Shown: positions 4,602 through 61,773 of the stretch, piece after piece
How positions within the stretch are numbered: the first letter of the stretch is position 1
Layout of the letters: each line of letters starts with the position of its first letter
From: Kiritimatiellia bacterium
Lineage (GTDB): Bacteria > Verrucomicrobiota > Kiritimatiellia > JAAZAB01
DNA: 64,000 bases
NCBI GenBank assembly: GCA_041653875.1
Contig: JBAZEM010000003.1
Location: 102,424 to 166,423 of the forward strand
Reading direction: 5' to 3'
Notes under the pieces: model-generated
What the model saw: only the letters and a program-made list of their open reading frames with translations
Databases searched by the model: none
What the model was told of the DNA's origin: nothing
Position numbers and translations under genes: made by a program

Positions 4602-7120
4602 CGCGCGAGCGCCCCCTTTTCCGTTTTCTTCAGCACCCGCCGCAGGAACAGCATTATCGGCGTGGCGATATAGATCGACGAGAAACAGCCTGTAATGGTG
4701 CCGATCGTGAACAGGAACGCAAAATCCCTGATGGCGCCGCCGCCGAAGATCAGGAGCATCATCACCGCCATGAAGACTGTGGCCGCCGTCAGGATGGTCC
4801 GGCTCAGGGTCTCGTTGACGCTCAGGTTGCAGACCTCGATTAGCGATCGGTCGGGGTACTTGCGCATATTCTCGCGAATCCGGTCGTAAACGACGATGGT
4901 GTCGTTGATCGAATAACCCACGATCGTCAGCAAGGCCGCGATGGTGGTCATGCCGAATTGCCCGCCAAACAAACAGTAAACACCCATGCTGATCATAATG
5001 TCGTGAATCAGCGCGACAATGCCGCCCACGGCGAACGAAAACTCGAACCGCCAGGCAATGTATATAATCATGCCAATGAAGGAATATAACAGCGCCTTCA
5101 GCGCGTTGAACGTCATTTCCCGGCCGATCTGCGGCCCGACGGTGTCTTCGTTGACAACCTTGAATTCCGATGCCGGGAATTTCGCGGACAGGGTTTCCTT
5201 GACCTTGTCGCCGGTGCCGTAAGCGGAACGGACCTGCAGGAATTCCGCGTTTTTGTTCAATTCCTTTTGGTATTGGATTTGGGTGTCCTTGATGCCGACG
5301 CCCGCCAAGGCGCCGCGGACGGATTCGACCTCCTGCTTTTGGGCGAACTGGAAGGTAATGGAGGAGCCGCCCGTGAAATCCGTTCCCAGCAAATTCCCCA
5401 TGCCTTGCATGCCGCGTTGCGCCATGAAAATCCACGTGACGATGACGATCGCGACCGAAATCCCGATGGCCACCTTGCGCCAACCGATGAAATCGATGTT
5501 GGTGGCCTTGATGATGGATAACATCCGGAGCTGAGGCATGGATGAGCGCGAGACAATGATGTTAAAGATCATGCGCGTCACGACCAGGGCCGTGTACATG
5601 CTGACCATGATGCCGGCGGTGAGCGTGATGCCGAACCCGCGCACCGAGCCCGAGCCCAGCATGAACAGGATCACGGCGGCCATCACGGTCGTCAGGTTGG
5701 AATCCAGGATCGTGGTGAAGGCCTTGGTGTAACCGGCCTCGATCGCCGGGCCGAGTCGTTTGCCAAGGGTCTGCTCCTCGCGCACGCGCTCGAAAATCAG
5801 GACGTTGGCGTCCACCGCCATACCGACGGTCAACGCAATGCCGGCAATACCCGGCAGAGTCAGCACGGGCAGTCCGATATGCGCGCCCGTGGCGCCCGTG
5901 AAAAGCCCCATAATCCCGGCCGTGATCATCATGCCCAAGGGCAACAACAGCATGTTGAATATGAGCGCAATGTTGGCCACCAGTCCGCCGACCATATAAT
6001 AGACGGCCATGAAAACCGCCACCAGGATGCAGGCGTAAATCGTGGCGCGGGCGCCGCTTTCGATCGAGTCGCGCCCCAGGGAGGGGTCGACGCTCCGCGA
6101 TTCGATGATCTGCACGGGCGCGGGCAGGGACCCGGCGCGCAGCACAATCGACAGGTCCTGGGCGTCCTTAAGCGTAAAATTGCCTTCGATGATCGCTTCG
6201 CCGCCGTAGATGGCGGTTTTGAGGAACGGCGCCGAATAGAGTTTGTCATCCATGATGATCGCCAGGTAGCGGCGTCCATCCGGGCTCGGGTTCTTGGCGC
6301 CGCCCGGGGCGTAATCGGCCGTAATGTTCGCGAACCGGCGGGCGCCTTGCGAATCGAACTTCAAAGTCACATAAGGTTGCCCTAATTGATCGAATTCGAT
6401 TCCAGCTTTCTTGAGCGTGTCGCCCCGCAGTTCGCAGCGTTTGTTGACAAAGTACGGGGTGAAAATCTTCTGGCCTTCCTCCTGTTTTTCTTCCAGCATG
6501 AACTTGTAGCCGGGCGGCGCCTGGAAGCGTTCCAGCTTGTCGCGGAATTCCTCGGTCATGGCTTCGTCGGGAACTTTTCGGGTGTCGCGCCGATAAACCT
6601 CGCGCCGGCCGCCGCTCACGGACGCCCCGATTTGAAAACCCTCCGGCGCCAAGCCCTTCTCGAAGAGCGCGCCCACGAGCTTGTCGTTATCCTTGTGGAC
6701 AATGCTGAACTGGAGGAACGCGGCGCTCTTGATCAGTTTGGCGGCGCGGTCACGGTCCGCATCCTTGAGGCCGGGAATCTGCACGACGATCCGGTCGTGC
6801 TTTTCCGGGTAAATCAACGGTTCGGCCACGCCGAGGGCATCCACGCGGTTGCGAATGATTTCGACCGCCTGCTCCTGGGCGTGCTGAACGGCGGCGTCCA
6901 CCAGACCGCGGATTTTCACGTCCGTGATGTCCTTGTTCTCCTTGTTCTCCTCGCGAATCTGTTTCTCGATTTCGCTTTCGTCGATTTGCACGGTGAAGCT
7001 CGTGCCGCCCTTGAGATCGAGTCCCAGTTTCACCTTGGAGCGAAACGGGATCACCAAGGCCAGCGACCAGGCCGTCAGCGCAATCAATATCAGCCATTTC
7101 CAAAGCGCATGTTTATCCAT
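4598..7120 (-). CDS. secDF: Protein translocase subunit SecDF (fused SecD-SecF)
   Basis: 840 aa. N-terminal TM followed by a large periplasmic domain and 12-TM RND-like core. SecD motifs GLDLKGG and SecF-like C-terminal half. Confidence 0.85.
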   Translation of the reverse strand: MDKHALWKWLILIALTAWSLALVIPFRSKVKLGLDLKGGTSFTVQIDESEIEKQIREENKENKDITDVKIRGLVDAAVQHAQEQAVEIIRNRVDALGVAEPLIYPEKHDRIVVQIPGLKDADRDRAAKLIKSAAFLQFSIVHKDNDKLVGALFEKGLAPEGFQIGASVSGGRREVYRRDTRKVPDEAMTEEFRDKLERFQAPPGYKFMLEEKQEEGQKIFTPYFVNKRCELRGDTLKKAGIEFDQLGQPYVTLKFDSQGARRFANITADYAPGGAKNPSPDGRRYLAIIMDDKLYSAPFLKTAIYGGEAIIEGNFTLKDAQDLSIVLRAGSLPAPVQIIESRSVDPSLGRDSIESGARATIYACILVAVFMAVYYMVGGLVANIALIFNMLLLPLGMMITAGIMGLFTGATGAHIGLPVLTLPGIAGIALTVGMAVDANVLIFERVREEQTLGKRLGPAIEAGYTKAFTTILDSNLTTVMAAVILFMLGSGSVRGFGITLTAGIMVSMYTALVVTRMIFNIIVSRSSMPQLRMLSIIKATNIDFIGWRKVAIGISVAIVIVTWIFMAQRGMQGMGNLLGTDFTGGSSITFQFAQKQEVESVRGALAGVGIKDTQIQYQKELNKNAEFLQVRSAYGTGDKVKETLSAKFPASEFKVVNEDTVGPQIGREMTFNALKALLYSFIGMIIYIAWRFEFSFAVGGIVALIHDIMISMGVYCLFGGQFGMTTIAALLTIVGYSINDTIVVYDRIRENMRKYPDRSLIEVCNLSVNETLSRTILTAATVFMAVMMLLIFGGGAIRDFAFLFTIGTITGCFSSIYIATPIMLFLRRVLKKTEKGALAR

Positions 7121-47844: not shown

Positions 47845-48040
47845 GAGTGACTTTTTCATGTAGAGCCGATTTTATGTCGGCTATCTTCGGGGCATAATAG
47901 CCGGTATTCCGCCAAAAGCGGATCCGCCTATGGAGGAAAAACCGGCTCTACATCGGATTGTCCGCCCCAGGCTGATCCGCCTCCCGCCGCCGCATAAAGC
48001 CATGGCTGGCAGGCTGGCGAAAAATTCCTTAACATCAACG
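47845..48040. repeat. Family A MITE-like repeat copy upstream of the HMT gene
   Basis: tgtagagccgattttatgtcggctatcttcgg...ggcggatccgcctatggaggaaaaaccggctctacatcggattg. Confidence 0.7.
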
Positions 48041-48079
48041 CGGATGGAAAACACAAACGGCAACAAGGAGAAAGTCGGC

Positions 48080-48976
48080 ATGGCAAAGAATACAATCGCG
48101 AATGAAGTCCACAAGGGGCGCGTTCTGGTATCCGACGGGGCATGGGGAACGTTTTTGCAGAAGAAAGGCTTGAAGACGGGCGAATGCCCTGAACTCTGGT
48201 GCGTAACGCACCAACCGGATGTGCTCGACATTGCCAGGAGCTATATCGCCGCCGGCGCCGACATGATCGAATCCGACAGCTTCGGCGGCACACGCTACAA
48301 ACTGGAGCATTTTGGCCTGGCGGACCGCACCGCGGAAATCAATAAAGCCGCCGCCGCCATTTCCCGGGAAGCGGCCGGCGCCGACAAGTGGGTGATCGCC
48401 TCTGTCGGCCCAACCGGACGGATGACGGCCATGGGCGACGTGACGGAGCAGGATTTGTATGACGCGTTCAAGGAACAAGCCCTGGCCCTGGCCGCCGGCG
48501 GCGCGGATGCGTTGTGCATCGAAACCATGAGCGCCCTGGACGAAGCCTCCGCCGCGATCCGCGCCACGCGCGAAAACACAAAATGCGAAGTCATCTGCAC
48601 GTTCACGTTCGATCGCACCCTGCAGGGCGGATATCGAACCATGATGGGCGTATCGCCGACTGAGGCGGCCCGCGCGGCCGTGGCCGCCGGCGCCCATGCG
48701 ATCGGCGCCAACTGCGGCAACGGCATGGAACGGATGATCGAGATCGTGAAAGAAATGCGCGCGGCGGCGCCCAAGACCCCGATCCTGGTGCATGCCAATG
48801 CCGGCCTGCCGAAGAACGTGAACGGCGTGGACGTCTTTCCGGAAACTCCGGCTGACATGGCCGGCCGCGTGGCGCCCCTGGTGGCGGCCGGCGCAAACAT
48901 TATTGGCGGATGTTGCGGCACCACGCCGGCGCATATCGCGGCCATCCGCAAAGCAGTGGACGGATTAAAACGTTAA
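48080..48976 (+). CDS. Homocysteine S-methyltransferase-domain protein (MetH Hcy-binding/MmuM-like, Zn-dependent)
   Basis: GGCCGTTPAHI zinc motif, GANCGNG, TIM-barrel Hcy-domain pattern. AAGGAG RBS and ATG at 48080. The listed ORF start lies in a repeat. Confidence 0.75.
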   Translation: MAKNTIANEVHKGRVLVSDGAWGTFLQKKGLKTGECPELWCVTHQPDVLDIARSYIAAGADMIESDSFGGTRYKLEHFGLADRTAEINKAAAAISREAAGADKWVIASVGPTGRMTAMGDVTEQDLYDAFKEQALALAAGGADALCIETMSALDEASAAIRATRENTKCEVICTFTFDRTLQGGYRTMMGVSPTEAARAAVAAGAHAIGANCGNGMERMIEIVKEMRAAAPKTPILVHANAGLPKNVNGVDVFPETPADMAGRVAPLVAAGANIIGGCCGTTPAHIAAIRKAVDGLKR

Positions 48977-48997: not shown

Positions 48998-50059
48998 ATG
49001 AGCTTTCAACCGAAATTTTTGGCCTCGGCCATCGGCAGCATGCCCTTCGATAACGCGGATTACGCCGTGGAAGTTTCACTGAAGAACCTGCCGCAGGCGC
49101 CGATTTGGCCGCAGCTTCCCAAATTCGGCATGAACGAACAGATGGAGATTCAGTATTCCGAAGGCATGCCCTGCGCCGTGATCGACCGGGACAAGCAGCG
49201 CCTCTATTTCAACACGTCCGGCGATTACTCCGAGTCCTTTGCCGCGTTTTACGAGACGTATATGGCCGCGACCGAAGGCGGCGATCTCTCCGCCCTGGCC
49301 ATCAGCCCCGCTTTTTCGCGCGGCATTTACGCCTTGGAAAAGCGTCTCCAGGCCGGCGGCAAAAAGCTGCCCTACGTAAAAGTGCAGACCACCGGGCCGT
49401 GCAGTTTTGCCCTGACGATCGTGGACGAAAACAAGCGGGCGATCTATTACAACGAGGAATTCCTCGACATGATCGTAAAGACCCTGGCGCTGAAATGCCG
49501 CTGGCAAATCCGCAAGTTCAAGCCGTTTGCGGAACGCATCATTTGTTTCGTTGACGAGCCCATTCTCTCCGCCTTCGGCAGTTCGACCTATGTATCGGTC
49601 AAACGCGAAGACGTGGTCGCCCGAATCGGCGAAGTGGTCGAGGCGATTCATGCGGAAGGCGGACTCGCCGGCATTCATTGCTGCGGCAACACGGAGTGGA
49701 GCATCCTGATCGACGCGGGTGTGGACATCGTGAATTTTGACGCCTTCGGTTTCGGCGAGACGATCGCCATGTATGCCGACGCGGTCAAAAGCCACCTCGC
49801 CCGGGGCGGCGTCCTGGCCTGGGGGATCGTGCCGACTTCCACGGCCATCCGGGAACAAACCGCGGATACGCTGGCCGCCAAACTGGAGCAGACCATGCAA
49901 CACCTCGCCGGCAAGGGGATCGATCCGGCCTTGATTGCGCAACAAGCCATGCTGACGCCGTCATGCGGCACGGGTTCGCTGGAGCCGGCCGACGCGCTCA
50001 AGGTCTTCGAAACGCTGGCGGCGCTGTCCGTGAAAATGCGGGCGCAATACCGGTTTTAA
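48998..50059 (+). CDS. Core-MetE-like (cobalamin-independent methionine synthase catalytic-domain family; UroD-like fold) methyltransferase
   Basis: FVDEPIL (MetE IQIDEPA-type motif). HCCGN and SCGTGS Zn-ligand motifs. 353 aa. Confidence 0.6.
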   Translation: MSFQPKFLASAIGSMPFDNADYAVEVSLKNLPQAPIWPQLPKFGMNEQMEIQYSEGMPCAVIDRDKQRLYFNTSGDYSESFAAFYETYMAATEGGDLSALAISPAFSRGIYALEKRLQAGGKKLPYVKVQTTGPCSFALTIVDENKRAIYYNEEFLDMIVKTLALKCRWQIRKFKPFAERIICFVDEPILSAFGSSTYVSVKREDVVARIGEVVEAIHAEGGLAGIHCCGNTEWSILIDAGVDIVNFDAFGFGETIAMYADAVKSHLARGGVLAWGIVPTSTAIREQTADTLAAKLEQTMQHLAGKGIDPALIAQQAMLTPSCGTGSLEPADALKVFETLAALSVKMRAQYRF

Positions 50060-50095: not shown

Positions 50096-50311
50096 ATGAG
50101 CGACATCCGGTGTCCGGGACAGGACCAGCGCTATTGGAAGCCGGGCGATATTTTTTACGCCGGCTGTCCCTGGTGCGGCGCGGAAATCGAATTTTGGAAG
50201 GACGAGCCGGTTCGGATTTGTTCGAAATGCAGGCGCGAAGTGCGGAATCCACGAATGGACCTTGGATGCGCCAAGTGGTGCAAAGAGGCGGACAAATGCC
50301 TGGGACGCTGA
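50096..50311 (+). CDS. Small 8-Cys zinc-ribbon-like protein
   Basis: 71 aa. CPGQ...CPWC...CSKC...C..C...C pattern. Strong GGAGGAGG RBS 5-6 nt upstream. Confidence 0.5.
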   Translation: MSDIRCPGQDQRYWKPGDIFYAGCPWCGAEIEFWKDEPVRICSKCRREVRNPRMDLGCAKWCKEADKCLGR

Positions 50312-50321
50312 AAACGACTTC

Positions 50322-51095
50322 ATGAAAATAGCCATTTCAGGCAAGGGCGGGGTCGGAAAGTCAACCTTGGCGGCGGCGCTGTCCTTGCTTCTGGCGCGCA
50401 AGGGCCGGCAAGTGCTGGCCGTGGATGCCGATCCGGACTCCAATCTCGGGGCATCCCTGGGCATCCCGGCGGCGGACCGCCGGGCGATCGTGTCCATTGC
50501 CCGCCAAGTCGCCTTGATCGAGGAGCGCACGGGCGCGAAAGTCAGCCAGTTCGGCCAGGTCTTTAAGATGAATCCGGATGTCGCGGATATCGCGGATACT
50601 TTTGCCTGGCGGCACAACGGCGTGGCCTTGCTGGTGCTGGGCGCGGTGAAACGGGGCGGAGGCGGATGCGCTTGTCCGGAGAATGTGCTGCTCAAGGCGC
50701 TGGTGACCGAGTTGGTGTTGCGGCGGGACGAGGCCCTGGTGATGGACATGGAAGCCGGCATCGAGCATCTCGGACGGGGCACGACCCGGGGCGTGGATCT
50801 GATGCTGGTTGTGGTGGAGCCCGGCCAGCGGTCTCTGGATACCGCCCGCCGTGTGTTCGAGTTGGGCAGGCAACTGGGCTTGCGCCGTTTCCGGGTCGTG
50901 GCGAATAAAATCGCGAGCCCAGCCGACGAAACCTTCGTCCGTTCGGCCTTTAACGAGGAAGAATTGATCGGCGCGATTCCGTATTCCGAGGCCTTGCGCG
51001 GAGCGGACCGGGATGGCCGTTCCGTGTTGGACGGCATCCCCCCGGACATCCTGGCCAGGTTCGAAACAATTTTACGGCAAGTTGAACAAACGTAA
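50322..51095 (+). CDS. cooC: CO dehydrogenase nickel-insertion ATPase CooC
   Basis: P-loop SGKGGVGKST. CACPE Ni-binding CxC motif. Confidence 0.85.
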   Translation: MKIAISGKGGVGKSTLAAALSLLLARKGRQVLAVDADPDSNLGASLGIPAADRRAIVSIARQVALIEERTGAKVSQFGQVFKMNPDVADIADTFAWRHNGVALLVLGAVKRGGGGCACPENVLLKALVTELVLRRDEALVMDMEAGIEHLGRGTTRGVDLMLVVVEPGQRSLDTARRVFELGRQLGLRRFRVVANKIASPADETFVRSAFNEEELIGAIPYSEALRGADRDGRSVLDGIPPDILARFETILRQVEQT

Positions 51096-51141: not shown

Positions 51142-51375
51142 ATGAGCATCACGGATATTGAGCGTCAGAAATATGTCCGCCTGATCGCGCGCGTGGAAGA
51201 GTTGGAAGCCCGCGTGGCGGAACTGGAAGACGAAATCGCCTTCGATAAAGACTCCGGCCAATCCCAGGATGGGGCCTTGGTGGCAGACGAACTGCGGGCG
51301 GCGCAGAACAAATTGGCCGCGGCGCGCACCGAGCTGGCGCGCGTCAGCGACGGTTGCGGAAAACCCCACGGATGA
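51142..51375 (+). CDS. Small coiled-coil protein between the two cooC genes
   Basis: 77 aa, heptad-like EELEARVAELEDE. AGGAG RBS. Confidence 0.4.
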   Translation: MSITDIERQKYVRLIARVEELEARVAELEDEIAFDKDSGQSQDGALVADELRAAQNKLAAARTELARVSDGCGKPHG

Positions 51376-51418
51376 CCGGCAACGATTTTTTCAACCACGA
51401 GCGAAGAAATTGACGCGT

Positions 51419-52198
51419 ATGAGTTTCACGATTGCCATAACGGGCAAAGGGGGGGTCGGCAAAACGACGCTCGCGGGTCTTCTGGTGAAACGCCTGATCG
51501 CCTCCGGACGCCGGCCCGTCCTGGCCGTGGACGCGGACCCCAACACCTGTTTGGACGCCGCGCTGGGCGTAAAAATCCGGCAGACGGTCGGCGGCGGCCG
51601 GGAAGAGGCCCGTCAAATCGCCGGCAAGGGGCTGGCGTCCGGCATTTCCAAACAGCAACTGTTGGAGCTGAAAATCGAGGAAAGCTTGGTGGAGGCCGAG
51701 GCTTTCGATTATCTCGCCATGGGACGGCCCGAGGGGCCGGGCTGTTATTGCTATGCCAATAATGTATTGAAATCGGCCTTGGAGACGCTGGCCGGCCATT
51801 ACCCCTATGTGGTGCTCGATAACGAGGCCGGATTGGAAAACCTCTCGCGCCGGATCGTGCGCAAAGTGGATCTTTTGATCATGGTGTCGGACCCGTCCCG
51901 CCGCGGCTTGGAAACGGTGCGGCGCTTGCACGCGCTGGCGCGGGAAATGGGCGTGGCCTTCGACCGTCTGGCTTTGGTGGTCAACCGCCTGCGGCAGGAA
52001 ACGCTGCCCGCGGAGGTCGAGGCCGTCCGCGCTGAAACCGGCGCCCAGGCGGTCTGGGGTTTGCCGGATCTCGCGGCGGTGGCGGAGCGAGCGGAGCGCG
52101 GCGAGTATGGATGCGACCTTCCGGCGGACAACGCGCTGGTGCGAAAAGTGGATGAGTTGCTGCGGGTTTTAGTGCCTGGCCGCGAAACTGGAGGATGA
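51419..52198 (+). CDS. acsF: CooC/AcsF-type Ni-insertion ATPase (second paralog)
   Basis: P-loop TGKGGVGKTT. CYCYAN CxC motif. Confidence 0.8.
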   Translation: MSFTIAITGKGGVGKTTLAGLLVKRLIASGRRPVLAVDADPNTCLDAALGVKIRQTVGGGREEARQIAGKGLASGISKQQLLELKIEESLVEAEAFDYLAMGRPEGPGCYCYANNVLKSALETLAGHYPYVVLDNEAGLENLSRRIVRKVDLLIMVSDPSRRGLETVRRLHALAREMGVAFDRLALVVNRLRQETLPAEVEAVRAETGAQAVWGLPDLAAVAERAERGEYGCDLPADNALVRKVDELLRVLVPGRETGG

Positions 52199-54159
52199 TC
52201 AACGATATGACAACGGAGACGAAACCAACCAAAAAAGCGGAAGATCGCGCCTGGGATGCGGCCTCCGTTGCGGTGTTGAACAAGGCCGCGGCGGAGTGTA
52301 TCGACACCTGCTTCAGCCGCATGGACACCCAGCAGAACCAATGCGCCTTCGGCAAACAAGGCATCTGTTGCCGGATTTGCTATATGGGGCCTTGCCGCAT
52401 CACGGCGAAAGCCCCCCGCGGGGTGTGCGGCGCGGATGCCGACACCATTGTGGCCCGCAATTTGCTCCGCGAAGTGGCCGGCGGCACCGCGGCGCATTCC
52501 GACCACGGACGCCACCTGGCGCTGCTGCTCAAGCGCGTCGCCGAAGGGCAAGGCGGCGATTACCGGATCAAGGATGAAGCCGTCTTGCGCCAGGCGGCCC
52601 GCTGGTACCAGGTCGAAGAAAGCGGCCGGGCGGCGAACGCCGTGGCGCTGGATCTGGCCAAATTGTTCTTGAACGAGTTTGCCTCGCAGGAAGAGACGCT
52701 CCGGACTTTGGCGCTGGCGCCGCAGAAACGGCGGAGCGTCTGGGAAAAAGAAGGCATCCAGCCGCAGGGGATCGACCGCATGTGCGTGGAAGCCCTGCAC
52801 CGCTCGACCATGGGCGTGGATCACGATTACGCGCATCTGCTGAGCCATGCGTTCCGAACCGCCTTGGCCGATGGCTGGGGCGGATCGCGGATTGCCACAA
52901 TCGTGTCCGATATTCTCTTCGGTTCGCCCGCGCCGGTGCGCAGCGAGGCGAATCTCGGCGTGCTGGGCGCCAAAACCGTGAACGTGGTGGTCCATGGCCA
53001 TGAACCCGCGCTTTCCGAAATGCTGGCCATTGCGTCGCAGGATGCGGACATGCTGGCGCTGGCGCGCGCGGCGGGGGCGGAAGGCATCACGCTGGCGGGC
53101 ATTTGTTGCACCGCCAACGAAATTTTGATTCGCCGCGGCATTCCGATCGCCGGGAATTTGCTGCAACAGGAATTGGCGATCGTCACCGGCGCCGTCGAGA
53201 TGATGGTGGTGGATGTGCAGTGCTGCATGCCCAGCTTGCCGACCGTGGCCGCGGCTTATCACACGGAAGTCGTTTCCACCAGCGCGATCGCCAAGACCCT
53301 TGGCACCACGCAGGCGGCCTTTGACGAGGAAAAGGCCCTGGCCTGCGCCAAGGACCTGCTCCGCCGCGCCATTGCCAACTTCAAGAACCGCCAGAGCGCC
53401 AAAGTCGCGATTCCGCCCTTGCGCTCGCCGCTGGTGGCCGGCTTTGGCGTCGAGGCAATCAAATATATGCTCGGCGGCCGTTACCGCGCCTCGTTTCGTC
53501 CGTTGAACGACGCCATCATGCAGGGCCGCATCCACGGCGTGGTGGGAATTGTCGGTTGCAACAACCCCAAGACGCGGGTCGATGAATACATCAACACCCT
53601 GACCAAGGCCTTGATCCAACGCAATGTGCTGGTGCTTAAGACCGGTTGCGCGGCGATTGCCTCGGCCAAGGAGGGACTCTTGACGCCCGAGGCGGCCTTG
53701 GAAGCGGCCGGGCCCGGCCTGCGCGAAGTGTGCGAAGCCATCGGCATCCCGCCGGTCTTGCACATGGGCAGTTGCGTGGACAATTCCCGCATCCTCGAGG
53801 CCGCCACGGAGGTCGTGCGGGAAGGAGGCTTGGGCGACGATCTTTCCATGATCCCGGCCGTGGGGGTGGCGCCGGAATGGATGAGCGAGAAAGCCGTGGC
53901 CATCGGCTTCTATTTTGTCGCCTCGGGCGTGGACGTCATCCTCGGGCATCCTTTCCGCATCGCCGGTTCGGCCAAGGCAACCCAATTCCTGAACACGGAT
54001 GTCCGTGAATCGTTCGGCGCAAGCTTCCACGTTTGCGAAGACGCGCCCGCCGCCGTCGAGCGGATTTTCGAACTGCTCGACCAGCGCCGCGAAAAATTGG
54101 GAATCAACCGCAAGATGGAGCGCAAGCTCTTTGACATGAAAGACAGGAGAGGCGTATAA
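52195..54159 (+). CDS. cooS: Anaerobic Ni-Fe-S carbon monoxide dehydrogenase catalytic subunit (CooS/AcsA)
   Basis: GICCRICYMGPCRI B/D-cluster motif. C-cluster ligand regions (HGH, GICCTANE, GCNN..., MGSCVDN). Alternative start ATG 52207. Confidence 0.85.
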   Translation: MINDMTTETKPTKKAEDRAWDAASVAVLNKAAAECIDTCFSRMDTQQNQCAFGKQGICCRICYMGPCRITAKAPRGVCGADADTIVARNLLREVAGGTAAHSDHGRHLALLLKRVAEGQGGDYRIKDEAVLRQAARWYQVEESGRAANAVALDLAKLFLNEFASQEETLRTLALAPQKRRSVWEKEGIQPQGIDRMCVEALHRSTMGVDHDYAHLLSHAFRTALADGWGGSRIATIVSDILFGSPAPVRSEANLGVLGAKTVNVVVHGHEPALSEMLAIASQDADMLALARAAGAEGITLAGICCTANEILIRRGIPIAGNLLQQELAIVTGAVEMMVVDVQCCMPSLPTVAAAYHTEVVSTSAIAKTLGTTQAAFDEEKALACAKDLLRRAIANFKNRQSAKVAIPPLRSPLVAGFGVEAIKYMLGGRYRASFRPLNDAIMQGRIHGVVGIVGCNNPKTRVDEYINTLTKALIQRNVLVLKTGCAAIASAKEGLLTPEAALEAAGPGLREVCEAIGIPPVLHMGSCVDNSRILEAATEVVREGGLGDDLSMIPAVGVAPEWMSEKAVAIGFYFVASGVDVILGHPFRIAGSAKATQFLNTDVRESFGASFHVCEDAPAAVERIFELLDQRREKLGINRKMERKLFDMKDRRGV

Positions 54160-57100
54160 TGTCTAAACTCATCTGCAGCAACGCCATCGATGGCGCCATC
54201 GAATGGGTGGCCCGGGCCGAAGCAAAACTGGCGGAGGCAATCCGCTCCAAAGGCGAAGCGTGTCCGGCGGCCTTTCCATCCACCGCGTATTTCCTGCCCA
54301 TCATCTATTCGTTCCTGGGCCAAAAGGTCGCCACCCTCGGAGACATGCGGAGCATTCTGCGCCGCGCCAAGGAACTGCTCCCGGCGCGGCCGTCCCGGCA
54401 GGTCTGGCTGCCGTATTTGGGCAATACGCTGGATGCCGGCGTGGCCGCGCTTTTTGCGTGCGAGATTCTGGAAGCCTGCAAGTATGTCATCGGCCCCAAC
54501 CCGGTGGAAGGCATTTGGCTGGGCGCGGCCAACGACGTGATCATGCGCGAGCGCGGCATCGAGTTCGTGGATGGAACGGCGCCGGGATTCGCCGCCATTG
54601 TCGGCGCGGCGCCGAACAAGGAAATCGCCGTGCAGATCGCCCGGGAATTACAGCAAAAGAATTTGTACGTGTTCATGGCCGGTTGCACGAATGGCGTGCA
54701 GTTCGCCGAACAGCTCGCCGAGGCCGGCGTGCAGCTGGGTTGGGAAACCCGACTGGTACCGTTCGGCCGCGATGTTTCGGCGGCGGTTTACGCCCTGGGG
54801 TTCGCCAACCGCGCGGCCCTTTCGTTCGGCGGCGTCAAGCCCGGCGATTACGAAGCCAACCTGAAGTATAACAAGAACCGTATCTTTGCCTTTGTGCTGG
54901 CGCTGGGCGAAGTGACGGCCGACAAATATGCCGTGGCGGCCGGCGCGATCAATTACGGCTTCCCGGTCATCGCGGACACCAACATCCCGCAGATCCTTCC
55001 CACGGGGGTGTGCACCTACGAGCATGTGGTATCCAACGTCCCCTACGAGAGCATGGTGGAACGCGCCCTGGAAGTCCGCGGCTGTAAAATCAAGATCGCC
55101 AAGGTGCCGATTCCCGTGCCCTATGGCCCGGCCTTCGAGGGCGAGCGCATCCGCAAGGCGGATGTTCATGCGGAGTTCGGCGGCAACCTGACGCCCGCGT
55201 TCGAATTCGCCACCTCCGTGGGCCTGGACCAGATCAATGACGGCGAGGTGGAAATCATCGGGCCGGATATCGACCAGGCGCCGGCCGGAACGGCGCTGCC
55301 TTTGGCCATCTGGGTGGAAGCGGCCGGGCGGAAAATGCAGCCGGATTTCGAGCCCATTCTGGAACGCCAGATCCATCACATGCTTAACGGCGCGGAAGGC
55401 ATCTGGCACATGGGCCAGCGCGACATCGTCTGGACGCGCGTCTCCAAGGCCGGGTTTGCCAAAGGCCTGCGTCTGCGCCATTACGGCGATATCCTCCATG
55501 CCAAATTGTTGTCCGACTATCCCGCCATCGTGGACAAGGTCAAGGTGACGCTGGTGACGGACCGGGCGGAAGTCGAGAAGCGCCTGGCCGTGGCCCGCAA
55601 AGTGTATGACGAGCGCAACCGCCGGCTGGAGACCATGACCGACGATTCCGTGGATACGTTTTACTCCTGTCTGCTGTGCCAGTCCTTTGCCCCCAACCAC
55701 GTCTGCATCATCACGCCCGAACGCCTGGGCTTGTGCGGCGCCTACAACTGGCTGGACGGCAAGGCGGCCTATGAAATCGACGAGACTGGCCCAAACCAGC
55801 CGGTGAAAAAAGGCGAATGCCTGGATCCGGTCAAGGGCGTGTGGAAGGGCATCGATGACTTCGTCTATGTGAACAGCCACAAGACCGTCCCTTCGTTCTG
55901 CGCCTATTCGATCATGGACAAGCCCATGACCAGTTGCGGCTGCTTCGAAGCGATTGTGGCCTATGTGCCGGAATGCAACGGCGTCATGGTGGTGAACCGG
56001 GAATTCCTGGGCGAAACGCCCGCCGGCATGACGTTCTCGTCCCTCGCCGGAAATGTGGGCGGCGGTCAGCAAACCCCTGGTTTCATGGGATGCGGCAAAG
56101 TGTTCCTGACATCGCGAAAATTCATGTTTGCCGAAGGCGGACACAAGCGCCTGGTCTGGATGCCCAAGGCGCTTAAAAAACTGCTGGCCGACGACCTGAA
56201 AAGACGGTTTACGGAACAGGGCGCCCCGGATCTCATGGACAAGATTGCCGACGAATCGGTCGGCAGCGATGGACAGACCGTCCGCGCCTTCATGGAAAAG
56301 GTGGACCACCCCGCGCTGCGCATGGACGACATGGCCACCTATGCCGAAGCGGCGCCCAAGGCGGAGGCGGCTCCCAGCACGCCGGCGCCCGCGGCGACAC
56401 TCATGGAAACGGCGGCGGCAAAATCCCTTGCGCCAGAACTCACGCCCGGAAAACCGGACGAGGCCCCGGCATTGACGCCGGACCTGATCGCCCAGATCAA
56501 GGCGCAGGTGGCGCATGAAGTCAAGACGACACTCACACAAGAGATCGTCCGCGACATCATCGGCTCCTTGAGCCGTCAATTTCTGGGCGGCTCGAGTCCT
56601 GTTTTGCCGGCAACCGCTCCCGCGGCAATGCCCGCGGCGCCGGCGCCCGTTGCCGCCCGCGCGCCGGAGTCAAAAAAGCCAGGCGTTGCGGAGCGCCTGG
56701 CCGCTGTCCGGACATTTACCATCAAGAAAGAGGCCTGCGAAGTCCCGGTGTGGACCGTGAAACTCGGGGCCACCAAGGCCGAAGGCGGAACGCGCGGCCG
56801 CACCTATATGATCGGCGGCGCCAAAGCGTTGCCGTTTCACGGCTGGGAAGGCAAGGCCGCCAATCCGCCGCGCATTGCCATGGAAGTTTACGATGTGGTG
56901 AGTGAAAAGTATCCGGCCGTGTTGCGCGCGATTTACGGCGACCTGTTAAACGATCCGGCGGCCATGGCGCGTGAATGCGTGACCAAGCACGGGGCCGATT
57001 TGATTTCCGTGCGCTTGGACGGCACCCACCCGGAGCGCGGCAACCGCTCGCCGGAACAAGCCGTCGAAGTCGTCCAGTCCGTGCTCCGGGCCGTGGATGT

Positions 57101-57674
57101 GCCGTTGATTGTCACCGGCCACAACAATTTCGACCGGAACAATGAGGTCATGAAGGCGGTGGCCCAGGCGTGCGCCGGTGAAAACCTGCTCTTGAACTGG
57201 GTGGAACAGAACAATTACCGGACGATCGCCGGCGCGGCCATTGCCTACAACCATGCCGTCGTTGCGCAGGCGCCCATCGACGTGAACATCGCCAAGCAAT
57301 TGAACATTCTGCTGACGAATATGGATTTGAAACCCGAGCGGATTGTCATGGACCCCATGACCGGCGCGCTGGGCTATGGCATCGAATACACCTATTCGGT
57401 CATGGAGCGCATTCGGCTGACCGGACTCGGCGGCGACAAGATGCTGGCCGGCCCGCTGATGGTCGCGCCCGGACCGGAATGCGTCAAAGTCAAGGAATGC
57501 AAGGCCGCGGAACGGGATTTCCCGGCCTGGGGTAATCTGGCCCAGCGCGCCGCGCTCTGGGAGCTGACCACCGCGCTCAGCCTGCTGTATGCCGGCGCCG
57601 ACCTGCTTGTCCTGAACCATCCGGATGCCGTTCGGGAACTGAAGTCGGCCATCGCACAGTTGATGGAGGAATAA
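54159..57674 (+). CDS. acsB: Acetyl-CoA synthase AcsB fused through an Ala/Pro-rich linker to a CFeSP small-subunit (AcsD/CdhD-like) TIM-barrel domain
   Basis: AcsB A-cluster motif CGCFE plus CLLCQSFAPNHVC. C-terminal ~330 aa match AcsD (GGTRGRTYMIGG, IAMEVYD, MDPMTGALGYGIEY). 1171 aa in total. Confidence 0.8.
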   Translation: MSKLICSNAIDGAIEWVARAEAKLAEAIRSKGEACPAAFPSTAYFLPIIYSFLGQKVATLGDMRSILRRAKELLPARPSRQVWLPYLGNTLDAGVAALFACEILEACKYVIGPNPVEGIWLGAANDVIMRERGIEFVDGTAPGFAAIVGAAPNKEIAVQIARELQQKNLYVFMAGCTNGVQFAEQLAEAGVQLGWETRLVPFGRDVSAAVYALGFANRAALSFGGVKPGDYEANLKYNKNRIFAFVLALGEVTADKYAVAAGAINYGFPVIADTNIPQILPTGVCTYEHVVSNVPYESMVERALEVRGCKIKIAKVPIPVPYGPAFEGERIRKADVHAEFGGNLTPAFEFATSVGLDQINDGEVEIIGPDIDQAPAGTALPLAIWVEAAGRKMQPDFEPILERQIHHMLNGAEGIWHMGQRDIVWTRVSKAGFAKGLRLRHYGDILHAKLLSDYPAIVDKVKVTLVTDRAEVEKRLAVARKVYDERNRRLETMTDDSVDTFYSCLLCQSFAPNHVCIITPERLGLCGAYNWLDGKAAYEIDETGPNQPVKKGECLDPVKGVWKGIDDFVYVNSHKTVPSFCAYSIMDKPMTSCGCFEAIVAYVPECNGVMVVNREFLGETPAGMTFSSLAGNVGGGQQTPGFMGCGKVFLTSRKFMFAEGGHKRLVWMPKALKKLLADDLKRRFTEQGAPDLMDKIADESVGSDGQTVRAFMEKVDHPALRMDDMATYAEAAPKAEAAPSTPAPAATLMETAAAKSLAPELTPGKPDEAPALTPDLIAQIKAQVAHEVKTTLTQEIVRDIIGSLSRQFLGGSSPVLPATAPAAMPAAPAPVAARAPESKKPGVAERLAAVRTFTIKKEACEVPVWTVKLGATKAEGGTRGRTYMIGGAKALPFHGWEGKAANPPRIAMEVYDVVSEKYPAVLRAIYGDLLNDPAAMARECVTKHGADLISVRLDGTHPERGNRSPEQAVEVVQSVLRAVDVPLIVTGHNNFDRNNEVMKAVAQACAGENLLLNWVEQNNYRTIAGAAIAYNHAVVAQAPIDVNIAKQLNILLTNMDLKPERIVMDPMTGALGYGIEYTYSVMERIRLTGLGGDKMLAGPLMVAPGPECVKVKECKAAERDFPAWGNLAQRAALWELTTALSLLYAGADLLVLNHPDAVRELKSAIAQLMEE

Positions 57675-57740
57675 GGCGCGGCTAATCCGTTTTGCCAAAA
57701 CCAAGAACCAATTTTTTTGGGCTAATTTAATCAAGCCTTC

Positions 57741-57833
57741 GGTTATTTTGCCGTTCTATCGAACGGCCACTACGCCGAATGGCCTGTCTGAACTCGGCCA
57801 GGGGTGTAGCTGCGGTTCGACAGAACCGCTGTG
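57741..57833. repeat. Family C hairpin repeat between acsB-D and acsC
   Basis: ttttgccgttctatcgaacggc...gtgtagctgcggttcgacagaaccgct. Confidence 0.65.
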
Positions 57834-57896
57834 TTTTGAATTCACTTAACATCGAGAACGGAACAATATCCAATTCGACAACCAACGAGGTGACGC

Positions 57897-59234
57897 ATGG
57901 CGCTTACCGGTTTGCAAATCCAAAAACTGCTCCCAAAAACCAACTGCAAGGAATGCGGCTCCAACACCTGCCTGGCCTTTGCCATGAAACTGGCGGCGAA
58001 AAAGGCGGACTTGTCCGCATGCCCTTACGCATCGGAAGAAGCCAAGCGCGTGCTCGGCGCGGCGAGCGAACCGCCGGTCCGGGAGATCGCGCTCGGCGGC
58101 GGCCGCCGGCTCAAACTGGGCGCGGAAACCGTCCTGTTTCGCCATGAAAAAACGTTCGTGAACCAGACCGCGCTCGCGGTGAATGTGAACGACACCGATG
58201 AACCCGCGGCGCTGGCAAAGACGTTGCAGGCCATTCGCGATTACGTGCTGGTGCGCGTGGGTGAAACCCTGCTGGTGGAGTTGGTTTGCGTGACCCAAAA
58301 AGGGAATAGCCCGGCCCGCTTTGCCGCGCTCGCCAAACAGGCGTGGGAGACCGTTAAGCGGCCGCTCATTCTGCGCAGCGCCGACGCGGACGCCCTGCGC
58401 GAAGCGGCGGCGGCCGTCAAAGGCTCCGGCAGCGTGCTGGCCCCCGCCACGCCGGAAGCCGCCCGCGCGCTGGCGGCGGTCGCCAAAGAAAACGGTCATG
58501 CCCTGGCCGTCACCGCGCCGGATTTGAACGATTTGACGGCGCTGGCCGCCGGCTTGAGAGCAGAGGGGTTCGGCGATCTGATCCTGCAGTTTCAGACGCA
58601 TTCGCTGGCCGAACAATTCCAGACCAATACGATTGCCCGGCGCGCCGCGCTCAAGGACAATTACAAACCGCTCGGCTATCCCAGCCTCCGGTTCGTGGAA
58701 GGCGCCGAACTGCTCGCCTGCGCCACCCAGGCTGTCACGGAAATCTGCAAGTATGGCGGCATCTGCGTTCTGCCGGTTTTCGATCCGGCGCTCTTGGCCG
58801 TCCTTATGACCCTGCGCTTGAATCTTTATACTGACCCTCAAAAACCGATCCAGGTGGAGCCCAGGATTTACCCCGTGGGCGAACCCAAACCGGATTCGCC
58901 GGTGTTTGTGACCACGAACTTCTCGCTGACCTATTTCATTGTGTCCGGCGAAATCGAAAACAGCGGCACAAGCGCCTGGCTGGTGGTCCCGGAATGCGAA
59001 GGCATGAGCGTGCTCACCGCCTGGGCGGCCGGGAAATTCTCCGGCGCCTCGATCGGGAAATTTATCAAGGAGTCCGGTCTGGAACAACAAGTCACGACGC
59101 GTCACATCGTGATCCCCGGATATGTCGCGCAAATCAGCGGCGAACTGGAAGAAAGTCTCCCCGGCTGGAAAGTGCTCGTGGGGCCGCAGGAAGCCGCCGA
59201 TATCGAGAGCTTTGTCAAGGCGCGGCTGGCATAG
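57897..59234 (+). CDS. acsC: Corrinoid iron-sulfur protein large subunit (AcsC/CdhE)
   Basis: N-terminal CKECGSNTC...CPY [4Fe-4S] motif. TIM-barrel and C-terminal corrinoid-binding region. Confidence 0.85.
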   Translation: MALTGLQIQKLLPKTNCKECGSNTCLAFAMKLAAKKADLSACPYASEEAKRVLGAASEPPVREIALGGGRRLKLGAETVLFRHEKTFVNQTALAVNVNDTDEPAALAKTLQAIRDYVLVRVGETLLVELVCVTQKGNSPARFAALAKQAWETVKRPLILRSADADALREAAAAVKGSGSVLAPATPEAARALAAVAKENGHALAVTAPDLNDLTALAAGLRAEGFGDLILQFQTHSLAEQFQTNTIARRAALKDNYKPLGYPSLRFVEGAELLACATQAVTEICKYGGICVLPVFDPALLAVLMTLRLNLYTDPQKPIQVEPRIYPVGEPKPDSPVFVTTNFSLTYFIVSGEIENSGTSAWLVVPECEGMSVLTAWAAGKFSGASIGKFIKESGLEQQVTTRHIVIPGYVAQISGELEESLPGWKVLVGPQEAADIESFVKARLA

Positions 59235-59810: not shown

Positions 59811-59844
59811 TTTATTGACGGCTCCTAAAGAAACCCTCCAAACA

Positions 59845-61773
59845 ATGCCGCTTGTCACATTCCAACCTTCGGGCCGGACCGTACAAATTCCCCCCAAAAC
59901 CGAGTTGCTGGATGCGATCCGGGCCGCCGGCGTTTCCATCGATTCGCCCTGCGGAGGACGCGGCACCTGCGGCAAGTGCATCGTCCGCATTGTCGCCGGC
60001 GCCGTGGATGCCGGCCAGAGCCTCGGGATGCTGCCCTCCGCCACGGTGGCGGATGGTTACGTGCTTGCCTGCAAGACCAAGGTGCAGGATTCCAACCTGA
60101 CCGTGGAAATCCCAGCAATACAGGCGCGGGAAGGCGCGCAAATCGCCGCGGGCGATGAAACCATCCTGGTCCGCGGCGAGCTGCTCCCAAAAAACTGGGA
60201 ATACGATTCCCTTTCCGTCAAGTGGTGCGTGGACGTGCCGCCGCCCCGGCTGGAAGACGGACTTTCCGACTTGGACCGGCTCACCCGCCGCATTCAGCGG
60301 GAATGGGGCGCCGTGGAATTGCATTACCCCTTGACGGTTATCCGCGAGGTGGCGAACGCGCTTCGCGCCCAGCAGGGCGTGGTGACCGCCACCTTGATCC
60401 GGACCCCGGAACGGATTTATGTGGTCCGCCTGGAAGCGGGCGACCAAACCACCAGCCATTATGGCATTGCCGTGGACATCGGCACCACCACGGTTTCGGT
60501 CCAGCTCGTGAATCTGGCGCTGGCGGAAATCGTGGGGACGCGCAGCGATTACAACGACCAAATCGCCTGCGGCCTCGATGTGATCGGCCGGATCAATTAC
60601 GCCCGGCGGCCGGACCGGCTCCGGGAATTGCGCGAACGAATTCTGGCCACGATCAATCGCCTGATTTGCCAGGTAACGGAGCAGCAGGGGATCGCCCCGC
60701 ATCTCGTCAGCAACGCCGTGCTCTCCGGCAACACCACGATGGTGCATTTGCTGCTGGGCCTGAACCCGGAATATATCCGGCTGAAACCCTACACCCCCAC
60801 GGTTCTGGAAGTTCCCTACCTGACCGCCGCGGAAGTCGGCATCGATATCGCCCCGGATTCCTGGATTTATATTTCCCCGAGTGTCGGCAGCTATGTCGGC
60901 GGCGACATCACCGCCGGCGTGCTCTGCACGGATTTGGCGATGGACACCGCGGACGTTAACCTCTTTATCGATATCGGCACCAACGGCGAACTGGTGGTGG
61001 GCAACAACGAGTTTCTCCTTACCTGCGCCTGTTCCGCGGGCCCGGCATTCGAAGGCGGCGGGGTCGATTGCGGCATGCGCGCGGCCCTCGGCGCCATCGA
61101 GCGCGCGGAGGTGAACCCCGAGGATGGCGCCGCCCGCTATTGGACCATCGGCAATGTCCCGCCCAAGGGTATTTGCGGTTCCGGCATGATTTCCCTGCTG
61201 GCCGATCTGATCAAAACCGGCTGGCTCGATTTCGCCGGAAAACTTAACCGTGCTCGCCCGTCGCCCGCCATTAAAATCGAAGGACGCCACGCTCACTATA
61301 TCATTGCGCCGGCCGGCCGCGACGGATTGACACACCCCGTTGTCATCAGCGAACCGGATATCGAAAATATCGTCCGCGCCAAGGCCGCCATCTATGCCGC
61401 TTGTTCGCTTTTGGTTCAGCACGCGGGCCTGACGTTCGGGGATTTGAAAAACGTTTACATCGGCGGTGGATTCGGACGGTTCCTCGATTTGGAGAAGGCC
61501 ATGACAATCGGCCTGATCCCGGAACTGCCGCGGGAAAAATACCACTACATCGGCAATTCCTCCCTGCTGGGTTCCTATATTGTGCTGGTTTCGCAGGATT
61601 ACCGCCAACGCCAATTGGAACTCGCCCGGCGCATGACGTATGTGGATCTCAGCTCGGATCCCCAATATATGGACCAGTACACCGGCGCGTTATTTCTGCC
61701 GCATACGGACCCGGCCCTGTTTCCCGGAGTTCATGCCGCGCTTCGTTCCAGCGGCATAACGCGTCCGGGATGA
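59845..61773 (+). CDS. Reductive activator of corrinoid enzyme (RACo-like: 2Fe-2S ferredoxin + ASKHA ATPase)
   Basis: MPLVTFQPSGRTV...CGGRGTCGKC 2Fe-2S motif. GIAVDIGTTT ASKHA phosphate-1. ~640 aa. Confidence 0.8.
   Translation: MPLVTFQPSGRTVQIPPKTELLDAIRAAGVSIDSPCGGRGTCGKCIVRIVAGAVDAGQSLGMLPSATVADGYVLACKTKVQDSNLTVEIPAIQAREGAQIAAGDETILVRGELLPKNWEYDSLSVKWCVDVPPPRLEDGLSDLDRLTRRIQREWGAVELHYPLTVIREVANALRAQQGVVTATLIRTPERIYVVRLEAGDQTTSHYGIAVDIGTTTVSVQLVNLALAEIVGTRSDYNDQIACGLDVIGRINYARRPDRLRELRERILATINRLICQVTEQQGIAPHLVSNAVLSGNTTMVHLLLGLNPEYIRLKPYTPTVLEVPYLTAAEVGIDIAPDSWIYISPSVGSYVGGDITAGVLCTDLAMDTADVNLFIDIGTNGELVVGNNEFLLTCACSAGPAFEGGGVDCGMRAALGAIERAEVNPEDGAARYWTIGNVPPKGICGSGMISLLADLIKTGWLDFAGKLNRARPSPAIKIEGRHAHYIIAPAGRDGLTHPVVISEPDIENIVRAKAAIYAACSLLVQHAGLTFGDLKNVYIGGGFGRFLDLEKAMTIGLIPELPREKYHYIGNSSLLGSYIVLVSQDYRQRQLELARRMTYVDLSSDPQYMDQYTGALFLPHTDPALFPGVHAALRSSGITRPG

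Follow-up and report, generated by a model that had tools for sequence, protein, structure and literature searches.

The corrinoid iron-sulfur protein (CoFeSP), the methyl carrier in the system of carbon monoxide dehydrogenase and acetyl-CoA synthase (CODH/ACS), must visit a methyltransferase, ACS and, if oxidised, a reductive activator, and its small subunit directly contacts ACS in ACS-CoFeSP complexes (bioRxiv 10.64898/2026.07.07.736967). In archaea, CoFeSP has been proposed as a scaffold that tethers ACS via disordered termini, and the bacterial small subunit, AcsD, is said to be without such an N-terminal region (bioRxiv 10.64898/2026.07.07.736967). The shuttling of CoFeSP among the methyltransferase, the activator and ACS is an active structural question, pursued by cryo-electron microscopy and cross-linking in 2024-2026. 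Here we analysed a 64,000-nucleotide stretch of DNA from a Kiritimatiellia bacterium (positions 102,424 to 166,423 of contig JBAZEM010000003.1, assembly GCA_041653875.1; hereafter the window), in which the bacterial ACS, AcsB, and AcsD are encoded by one gene, acsB::acsD. The AcsB::AcsD fusion is no product of faulty assembly: it is a real, naturally occurring form of a classic enzyme of carbon fixation, and it is likely that it forms a covalent tether between ACS and CoFeSP, with a linker of ~120 residues inside a single polypeptide of ~125 kDa. In a full-text literature search no description of an AcsB-AcsD fusion was found, although a 2018 PNAS phylogeny of CODH/ACS possibly holds an earlier mention.

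An in-frame AcsB-AcsD fusion and its distribution

The fusion gene occupies positions 54159..57674 on the forward strand as one uninterrupted, ATG-started open reading frame (ORF) of 1171 amino acids, ~125 kDa. The initial annotation had described a complete ACS with a CGCFE motif in a single ORF of this length, followed by a full AcsD-like TIM barrel, and both descriptions hold, with the ORF exact to the base. Four Pfam domains are recognised, PF18537 CODH_A_N (residues 21-110), PF03598 CdhC (318-472), PF19436 ACS_CODH_B_C (483-725) and CdhD (877-1104), along with two NCBIfam families above their cut-offs. The AcsB part, residues 1-725 (54159..56333, +), scores 1031.8 bits over residues 10-725 against NF040764, the bacterial ACS 'alpha/beta' equivalog (PRK09529; cut-off 800), and 1017 bits against NF007078 (cut-off 809). 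It aligns over its full length with PDB chains 7zkj_B, 1oao_C and 1ru3_A; residues 7-725 pair with 22-727 of the 730-residue Carboxydothermus ACS 7zkj_B, Moorella ACS aligns likewise, and the scores against the solved ACS chains 7zkj_B and 9fr0_A are ~728 bits. Because the alignment runs from end to end, the AcsB part must stop at the canonical C-terminus. Its layout comprises the A1 domain, from residue 1 to ~310, and then the A2-A3 region. The A1 domain, which docks on CODH, is the mark that separates AcsB from archaeal CdhC, and it is present here, as seen from the CODH_A_N match and from structure alignments that begin at residue 7. In the translation, C504, C507, C516 and C526 (55668..55736, +) and Cys593-Gly594-Cys595 in the 'SCGCFE' motif (55935..55943, +) are invariant in alignments of relatives. 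From knowledge of the Moorella enzyme, we take the former to be the [4Fe-4S] cysteines of the A-cluster and the latter its distal Ni site.

The AcsD part, residues 851-1171 (56709..57671, +), forms the TIM barrel of the CoFeSP small subunit. Residues 856-1169 score 381.2 bits against the AcsD subfamily model NF003376 (cut-off 280), and residues 858-1169 match 8-318 of the 323-residue Moorella AcsD 4djd_D with 317 bits (E = 2.6e-93). The domain does not reach the threshold of NF040759 WLP_AcsD, the acetogen-type model (260.8 bits against 430), and all fused AcsD domains tested likewise fit NF003376 and fall under the NF040759 cut-off. Each half is therefore an ordinary member of its own family, AcsB in one case and AcsD of subfamily NF003376 in the other. 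Since the scores exceed curated cut-offs, the structure alignments are full-length and the A-cluster ligands are invariant, both halves look functional as judged from their sequences.

Further AcsB-AcsD fusions, for which the initial annotation had proposed a database search, turned out to be numerous, so the fusion characterises a whole family and is no oddity of one genome. In a search over 5.8 billion proteins, the 120 best hits (72-100% identity) were all fused, with lengths of 1148-1220 amino acids and the same four Pfam domains. The identical 1171-residue protein is recorded for three contigs, which stem from two or more samples (ENA assembly, JGI metagenome and NCBI MAG records, MAG denoting a metagenome-assembled genome). 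When every GTDB species was represented by a single genome, scanning gave 566 relatives, and among the best 80 loci examined 71 read through in frame from AcsB to AcsD, 60 as complete ORFs and 11 cut by a contig end. Some of them lie on megabase-scale contigs or closed chromosomes, with sizes of 2.5, 3.8 and 8.6 Mb among them. Of the other nine loci, four leave the contig before the junction, two show a frame change (L055 and L056) and three are truly unfused (L078, L079 and L080).

These results bear on the simplest alternative, that a lost stop codon or a frameshift, from assembly or sequencing, merged adjacent acsB and acsD genes. The window is a single MAG-derived sequence, and the frame changes of L055 and L056 lie in or before the linker, so an error of this kind deserved consideration; the initial annotation had itself named it as what would overturn the fusion. 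However, the protein was assembled independently, the nearest relatives are fused without exception, and the linkers of the read-through loci, some on megabase contigs, differ in length and sequence. In addition, nothing is left in the alignment of a canonical stop for AcsB, a spacer between the genes or a start for AcsD. An artefact is thus extremely improbable, and a missed stop or frameshift in the window is excluded.

Fused genes occur in MAGs labelled as ~15 phyla, at AcsB identities of 45-88%. The labels cover Verrucomicrobiota (Kiritimatiellia and Victivallales), Planctomycetota (Phycisphaerae), Zhuqueibacterota, Bacteroidota, Chitinivibrionales, Chitinispirillaceae, Syntrophales, Spirochaetota (Leptospiraceae and Treponema), Synergistaceae, Clostridia, Hydrogenedentota, Sumerlaeota, Acidobacteriota (Terriglobia, Aminicenantes and Korobacteraceae), Armatimonadota, NC10 and Anaerolineae. 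AcsB identities of 65-88% across such distant phyla suggest horizontal spread of the operon. Clustering at 50% identity leaves very few family representatives (P0121 and P0122), so the main clade is compact. Public annotations name the fused proteins only 'subunit alpha/beta' or 'acetyl-CoA synthase'. Consequently, pathway reconstructions that seek a separate acsD may score the carbonyl branch of the Wood-Ljungdahl pathway as incomplete in many uncultured lineages, among them Kiritimatiellia, Victivallales, Phycisphaerae, Aminicenantes, Syntrophales, Spirochaetota and Acidobacteriota.

Neighbour-joining (distance) trees, which carry no support values, were built separately for the AcsB and AcsD parts. 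The two trees agree: members with linker types A and B and with short linkers (defined below) form one clade, whereas the Anaerolineae clade with type C linkers branches apart, among unfused sequences, in both. In the AcsB tree the unfused sequences L078-L080 and P0124 are sister to the main fused clade; in the AcsD tree this place falls to P0178 and P0230. The fusion probably arose more than once, the simplest reading being two or more independent events with occasional fission, and the count of fusion events is provisional because distance trees without support values underlie it. P0128 has a third design, in which AcsB is followed by a linker of ~35-50 residues and an N-terminally truncated AcsD. 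We also considered a stand-alone AcsD with a linker as the ancestor of the fusion. The five candidates (P0147, P0238, P0148, P0149 and P0182) were rejected as fragments of fused proteins, since they do not begin with Met, include part of the AcsB C-terminus or group with a member of 1248 residues.

Other rearrangements in the enzyme family were noted among the database representatives. They include an AcsA-AcsB fusion of 1375 amino acids, a Pyr_redox_2-AcsB fusion of 1024 amino acids and AcsD with an unannotated C-terminal extension of ~220 amino acids (P0133, P0129, P0254, P0265 and P0268). Two unfused AcsB proteins, P0126 (1276 amino acids) and P0139 (1155 amino acids), carry an insertion of ~520-530 residues inside the A-cluster motif (..SCTL, then C...N, then CQSFAP..), which, judged by sequence, looks like an intein that contains a homing-endonuclease domain.

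The linker and a proposed tether for the methyl carrier

Residues 726 to ~850, ~116-125 amino acids, belong to neither canonical AcsB nor AcsD. The initial annotation had seen here a linker of ~110 residues, rich in Ala, Pro and Thr and of low complexity. The Ala/Pro richness stands (A 25%, P 15%, T 9%), the linker is somewhat longer, and the low complexity is not uniform, since a helix of ordinary coding composition interrupts it. In the alignment of 120 homologues, conservation falls from ~0.9 in the domains to 0.28-0.5 across residues 726-840, with an island at ~772-812. The first segment, residues 726-771 (56334..56471, +; A 35%, P 17%), is poorly conserved with many gaps and appears disordered. 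It is followed by the conserved island (56472..56594, +), an amphipathic helix with the sequence LTPDLIAQIKAQVAHEVKTTLTQEIVRDIIGSLSRQFLGG, and by a second segment, residues 813-850 (56595..56708, +; A 34%, P 28%), which appears disordered from its conservation, structure prediction and composition. According to AlphaFold2 modelling of the full-length fusion on a 50-sequence alignment, the predicted local distance difference test score (pLDDT) is below 50 at residues 729-773 and 809-842, and a single helix with pLDDT ~53-60 spans 774-808. The helix has the consensus ..LT.E.I..IK..(0-8 residue indel)..E.K..LT.EIV..II..LS.KFLG, and an anchored alignment accommodates 33 of the 39 sequences (38 loci and the window) outside the groups with type B, type C and short or aberrant linkers. 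Its GC content at the three codon positions (0.59/0.39/0.80) is the same as in the flanking coding domains.

Selection keeps this long disordered linker in frame. Across the window linker the fusion frame alone is stop-free, and the other five frames carry 1-6 stops. The chance of meeting no stop in one stretch of 125 codons is ~0.08, but that chance should produce this again and again, in dozens of genomes whose linkers are unrelated in sequence, is not credible. A linker is present in every fused member; its length and sequence vary and its make-up rich in Ala, Pro and Glu is kept. In the 60 complete fused ORFs it measures 48-257 residues (median 119), with a pooled content of 19% Ala, 12% Pro and 10% Glu, and the conserved helix is found in most fused members. 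We also considered an internal translation start for AcsD, and rejected it from a reading of the alignment: the distal linker has a single Met, residue 824, which the homologues do not conserve.

Relatives differ in the centre of the linker. In type A, which includes the window and most members, a disordered stretch, the conserved helix and a second disordered stretch follow one another. In type B, found under Acidobacteriota, Armatimonadota and NC10 labels, the middle of the linker is similar to the last ~50 residues of the AcsD domain in the same protein; in 8 of 13 loci this similarity reaches z = 4-6, with 0-1 of 200 shuffles. The segment reads ..QQMAALQASTAxHLLHAGANMLLM.. in L036, L040, L064, L067, L069, L073, L074 and relatives, for example at linker residues 114-138 of L061, and from this sequence likeness the type B element is a partial internal duplication of an AcsD segment. 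Type C, under Anaerolineae labels, has a different helix, and the short type of three Syntrophales genomes spans 48-54 residues without a helix. A common origin of types A, B and C was considered and finds no support: a hidden Markov model (HMM) of the type A helix scores types B and C no better than shuffled sequences. The same helix has no match among the other operon proteins, and among PDB chains it matches nothing except a designed helical protein. Against residues 43-88 of Methanosarcina acetivorans CdhD, the HMM scores -2.1, which 55 shuffles equal or exceed, and local alignments reach z <= 1.2.

We propose that the linker serves as a tether. AcsC, the large CoFeSP subunit, is expected to bind the AcsD domain in the usual way, and the complete carrier would thereby be leashed to ACS at 1:1. 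The enzyme that uses or makes the methyl group would thus hold its carrier permanently, and the AcsB:AcsD stoichiometry would be fixed at 1:1. For a linker of ~75 disordered residues and a helix of ~35 residues, we estimate a contour length of ~32 nm and a coil end-to-end distance of ~6 nm. From this polymer estimate, the tether would give a local CoFeSP concentration of ~0.2-2 mM near the A-cluster, and methyl transfer would be largely independent of the cellular CoFeSP concentration. In addition, the ~32 nm of slack would let the carrier swing out to AcsV, the reductive activator, and to its partner in methyl transfer. The initial annotation had proposed fixed stoichiometry and channelling of the methyl-corrinoid; proximity and fixed stoichiometry are reasonable, and channelling in the strict sense stays a suggestion. 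The conserved helix probably serves for docking or for self-association.

Several observations weigh against the tether. Its kinetic benefit is inferred from the polymer estimates, and the linker may be processed proteolytically. The AlphaFold2 model is weak (mean pLDDT 64.5, predicted template modelling score (pTM) 0.39): the domain folds are plausible, and the model gives neither a confident inter-domain arrangement nor a docking site for the helix. No similarity is detectable among the three linker types, and the helix is missing in the Syntrophales members with linkers of 48-54 residues, which means that it is not essential to the fusion. The close relatives L078, L079 and L080 are unfused at 61-62% identity, and an unfused stand-alone AcsD with a proper Met start (P0233) is nested in the type C clade, so that the fusion must be dispensable or reversible. 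Furthermore, among the fused hits there is no cultured organism, all members found being MAG-derived.

The fusion might instead be near-neutral, of the Rosetta-stone kind, or the polypeptide might be a precursor that is cleaved; the halves would then act as separate AcsB and AcsD and the linker would have no mechanistic role. Fusions of adjacent operon partners are common, this enzyme family has many others, such as AcsA-AcsB and Pyr_redox_2-AcsB, and unfused relatives work without one. The poor conservation of the linker outside the helix and the very short, helix-less linkers of some lineages also fit this explanation. What it leaves unexplained is the persistence of the fusion across the ~15 labelled phyla at 45-88% AcsB identity, its probable gain on more than one occasion, and the maintenance within the linker of a ~40-residue helix with conserved polar and hydrophobic positions. 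In addition, Ala/Pro-rich linkers are a classic solution for mobile carrier domains, as in the E2 component of 2-oxoacid dehydrogenases. We therefore regard a near-neutral fusion or a cleaved precursor as unlikely. A different alternative, which is compatible with the tether and extends it, concerns the helix: it would assemble a complex like the archaeal acetyl-CoA decarbonylase/synthase (ACDS), with (AcsA)2(AcsB::AcsD)2(AcsC)2 units joined by helices, or it would dock AcsE, AcsV or the products of the two methyltransferase-like genes at the upstream end of the operon, the MesB-like protein and a homocysteine S-methyltransferase (HcyMT)-domain protein. The helix is conserved, amphipathic and set between disordered segments, a layout equal to that at the N-terminus of archaeal CdhD, where a coiled coil forms and brings about CoFeSP oligomerisation, and the Acidobacteriota/Armatimonadota clade replaces it with the partial copy of the AcsD C-terminus, also a potential protein-protein interface. 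Yet the helix resembles neither the archaeal CdhD peptide nor any natural PDB chain or operon protein, its hydrophobic spacing as read from the alignment is mostly i, i+4 with no clean heptad, and its modelled confidence is low (pLDDT ~53-60). Some Syntrophales have, moreover, lost the helix while keeping every operon gene. Assembly or docking through the helix is thus a tentative proposal.

In its fullest form the proposal would make the fusion the core of a bacterial ACDS-like supercomplex, with the helix, or the duplicated AcsD segment, used for self-association or partner docking and with CoFeSP as a swinging arm that serves several sites, a design reached convergently at least twice. The swinging CoFeSP would serve ACS, the MesB-like methionine synthase or the HcyMT-domain protein, a methyl-tetrahydrofolate methyltransferase encoded elsewhere, and AcsV. 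We find such a supercomplex possible and rather doubtful. With respect to the simpler covalent tether, a natural ACS-CoFeSP link offers a stable complex, already made, in which the structure and kinetics of the methyl-transfer state can be studied. The fusion is widespread and mechanistically suggestive, yet it is made of known parts and shows no new chemistry.

Operon and possible methyl-transfer partners

The genes run in the order HcyMT-domain gene, 353-codon gene, two cooC-like genes, acsA, acsB::acsD, acsC and acsV/RACo, followed by an AraC-type regulator, and the order cooC-cooC-acsA-acsB::acsD-acsC-acsV is kept in nearly all main-clade loci. The catalytic Ni-CODH subunit is encoded by acsA (52195..54159, +; PF03063 529 bits, TIGR01702 609 bits). 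Upstream of it lie two CooC/AcsF-like P-loop ATPase genes (50262..51095 and 51269..52198, +), which have CbiA, ParA and ArsA-type Pfam hits and a conserved position in related loci, and whose products are presumed to be Ni-insertion factors. Gene callers predict a small ORF before each of them (71 and 77 amino acids, no Pfam match; ~50096..50311 and ~51142..51375, corresponding to 5938..6153 and 6984..7217 in L081); these ORFs are predictions only. The second cooC-like gene overlaps acsA by 4 nt, and the acsA stop shares 1 nt with the start of the fusion gene (TAATG), AGGAGAGG lying upstream, an arrangement which indicates that acsA and the fusion gene are translationally coupled. At the end of acsA (54131..54160, +) there is a 12/12 match to the sigma-70 consensus (TTGACA, 18 nt, TATAAT), whose -10 box overlaps the fusion start codon. 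The site is probably coincidental, since promoter-like sites in the region occur at chance level and a transcript would begin inside the ORF.

Downstream of the fusion gene, acsC is a separate gene, as the initial annotation had stated (57897..59234, +; NF003195 500 bits; PF04060 and PF03599). It encodes the large CoFeSP subunit with an FeS domain, a barrel and a corrinoid-binding domain, and it adjoins the AcsD-coding gene in nearly all related loci. A gap of 222 bp (57675..57896) separates it from the fusion gene, in contrast to the overlapping genes upstream. The gap contains a GC-rich hairpin (57812..57829) and then a T-rich tract, which could be a partial termination or processing site that tunes the AcsC level. 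Next comes a gene for an AcsV/RACo-type reductive activator of the corrinoid protein (59815..61773, +), recognised by its RACo_C_ter, Raco_middle, RACo_linker and Fer2 domains and by 646 bits against NF040756, below the cut-off of 800. The gene for the pterin-binding methyltransferase, acsE, is found neither in the operon, nor in the 64-kb window, nor within 6 kb of any main-clade fused gene, as judged by Pfam scans that included 20 further window genes and by tblastn with the AcsE of L072. It is present in the type C fused loci L066, L072 and L075 and in the unfused L079 and L080.

Two genes at the upstream end of the operon encode possible methyl-transfer partners. The 353-residue protein (48998..50059, +), annotated as 'hypothetical' and without a Pfam hit, has thousands of homologues and occurs in nearly all related CODH/ACS loci at 55-78% identity, and at 37% in the unfused L079 and L080. 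It weakly matches the methionine synthase family PRK00957. According to our AlphaFold2 model (pLDDT 87, pTM 0.89), its closest folds are the catalytic barrel of MetE and MtaA, with TM-scores (template modelling) of 0.53-0.60. In addition, S14, D186, H227, C229, D248 and C323 are invariant, at a near-constant offset to the Zn- and homocysteine-binding residues of MesB, a core methionine synthase for which CoFeSP is the predicted source of methyl groups (PMC7857596). Because of the MetE/MtaA fold and the invariant residues that match MesB, the 353-residue protein is, by sequence and model, probably a CoFeSP-dependent methionine synthase. The gene before it (47930..48976, +) encodes a stand-alone HcyMT-domain protein (PF02574 236 bits, with NCBIfam hits), a second zinc-thiol methyltransferase beside the MesB-like gene. 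This HcyMT gene recurs in the clusters, either upstream or after acsV (the latter in L003, L034, L040 and L060-L074). An operon that lacks acsE and carries a MesB-like gene hints that the enzyme acts as a methyl-group hub and not only in acetogenesis.

Comparison with known systems

The window encodes the same catalytic parts as the CODH/ACS and CoFeSP of acetogens (AcsA-AcsE of Moorella thermoacetica, Carboxydothermus hydrogenoformans and Clostridium autoethanogenum), and its operon likewise holds genes for AcsA, AcsC and a RACo-type activator. Unlike in acetogens, AcsB and AcsD form one polypeptide in place of a stand-alone AcsD of ~310-325 amino acids, and the AcsD domain fits NF003376 and not the acetogen-type NF040759. 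The initial annotation had remarked that the arrangement is not the textbook acsABCDE. This departure is borne out and goes further: besides the covalent link and its linker, there is no clustered acsE, and the MesB-like and HcyMT genes are clustered instead.

Pathway partners have been fused in other ways. Desulfurivibrio alkaliphilus has an MTHFR/AcsD fusion (PMC5016858), and AcsA-AcsB and Pyr_redox_2-AcsB fusions exist, but in no case is ACS linked to the protein that donates its methyl group. A second likeness, by analogy only, lies outside the pathway. The lipoyl domains of 2-oxoacid dehydrogenase E2 are carriers that swing on Ala/Pro-rich linkers, and the fusion similarly places a cofactor carrier on a flexible Ala/Pro-rich tether by active sites. 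Unlike the lipoyl domains, the carrier here is a two-subunit corrinoid protein of which only the subunit without the cofactor is tethered, so that the corrinoid-bearing AcsC is held indirectly.

The archaeal ACDS is the closest comparison in principle. Like it, the window protein has a disordered region with one helix directly N-terminal to the CdhD/AcsD barrel, and both apparently serve to hold ACS and CoFeSP at high local concentration without loss of mobility. Unlike in the archaeal complex, the tether is covalent and its sequence has no detectable similarity to the archaeal region. The archaeal ACS is without an A1 domain and binds CODH only transiently, whereas the bacterial AcsB contains A1 and its binding to CODH should therefore be stable. 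Hexa- to octameric oligomerisation through the CdhD helix characterises the archaeal scaffold; for the window helix, self-association is a tentative proposal. The window protein thus resembles the archaeal ACDS in principle and falls outside it as a member, given its A1 domain and its dissimilar disordered region. By gene fusion, bacteria have reached the same 'keep it close but mobile' principle that has been proposed for the archaeal supercomplex.

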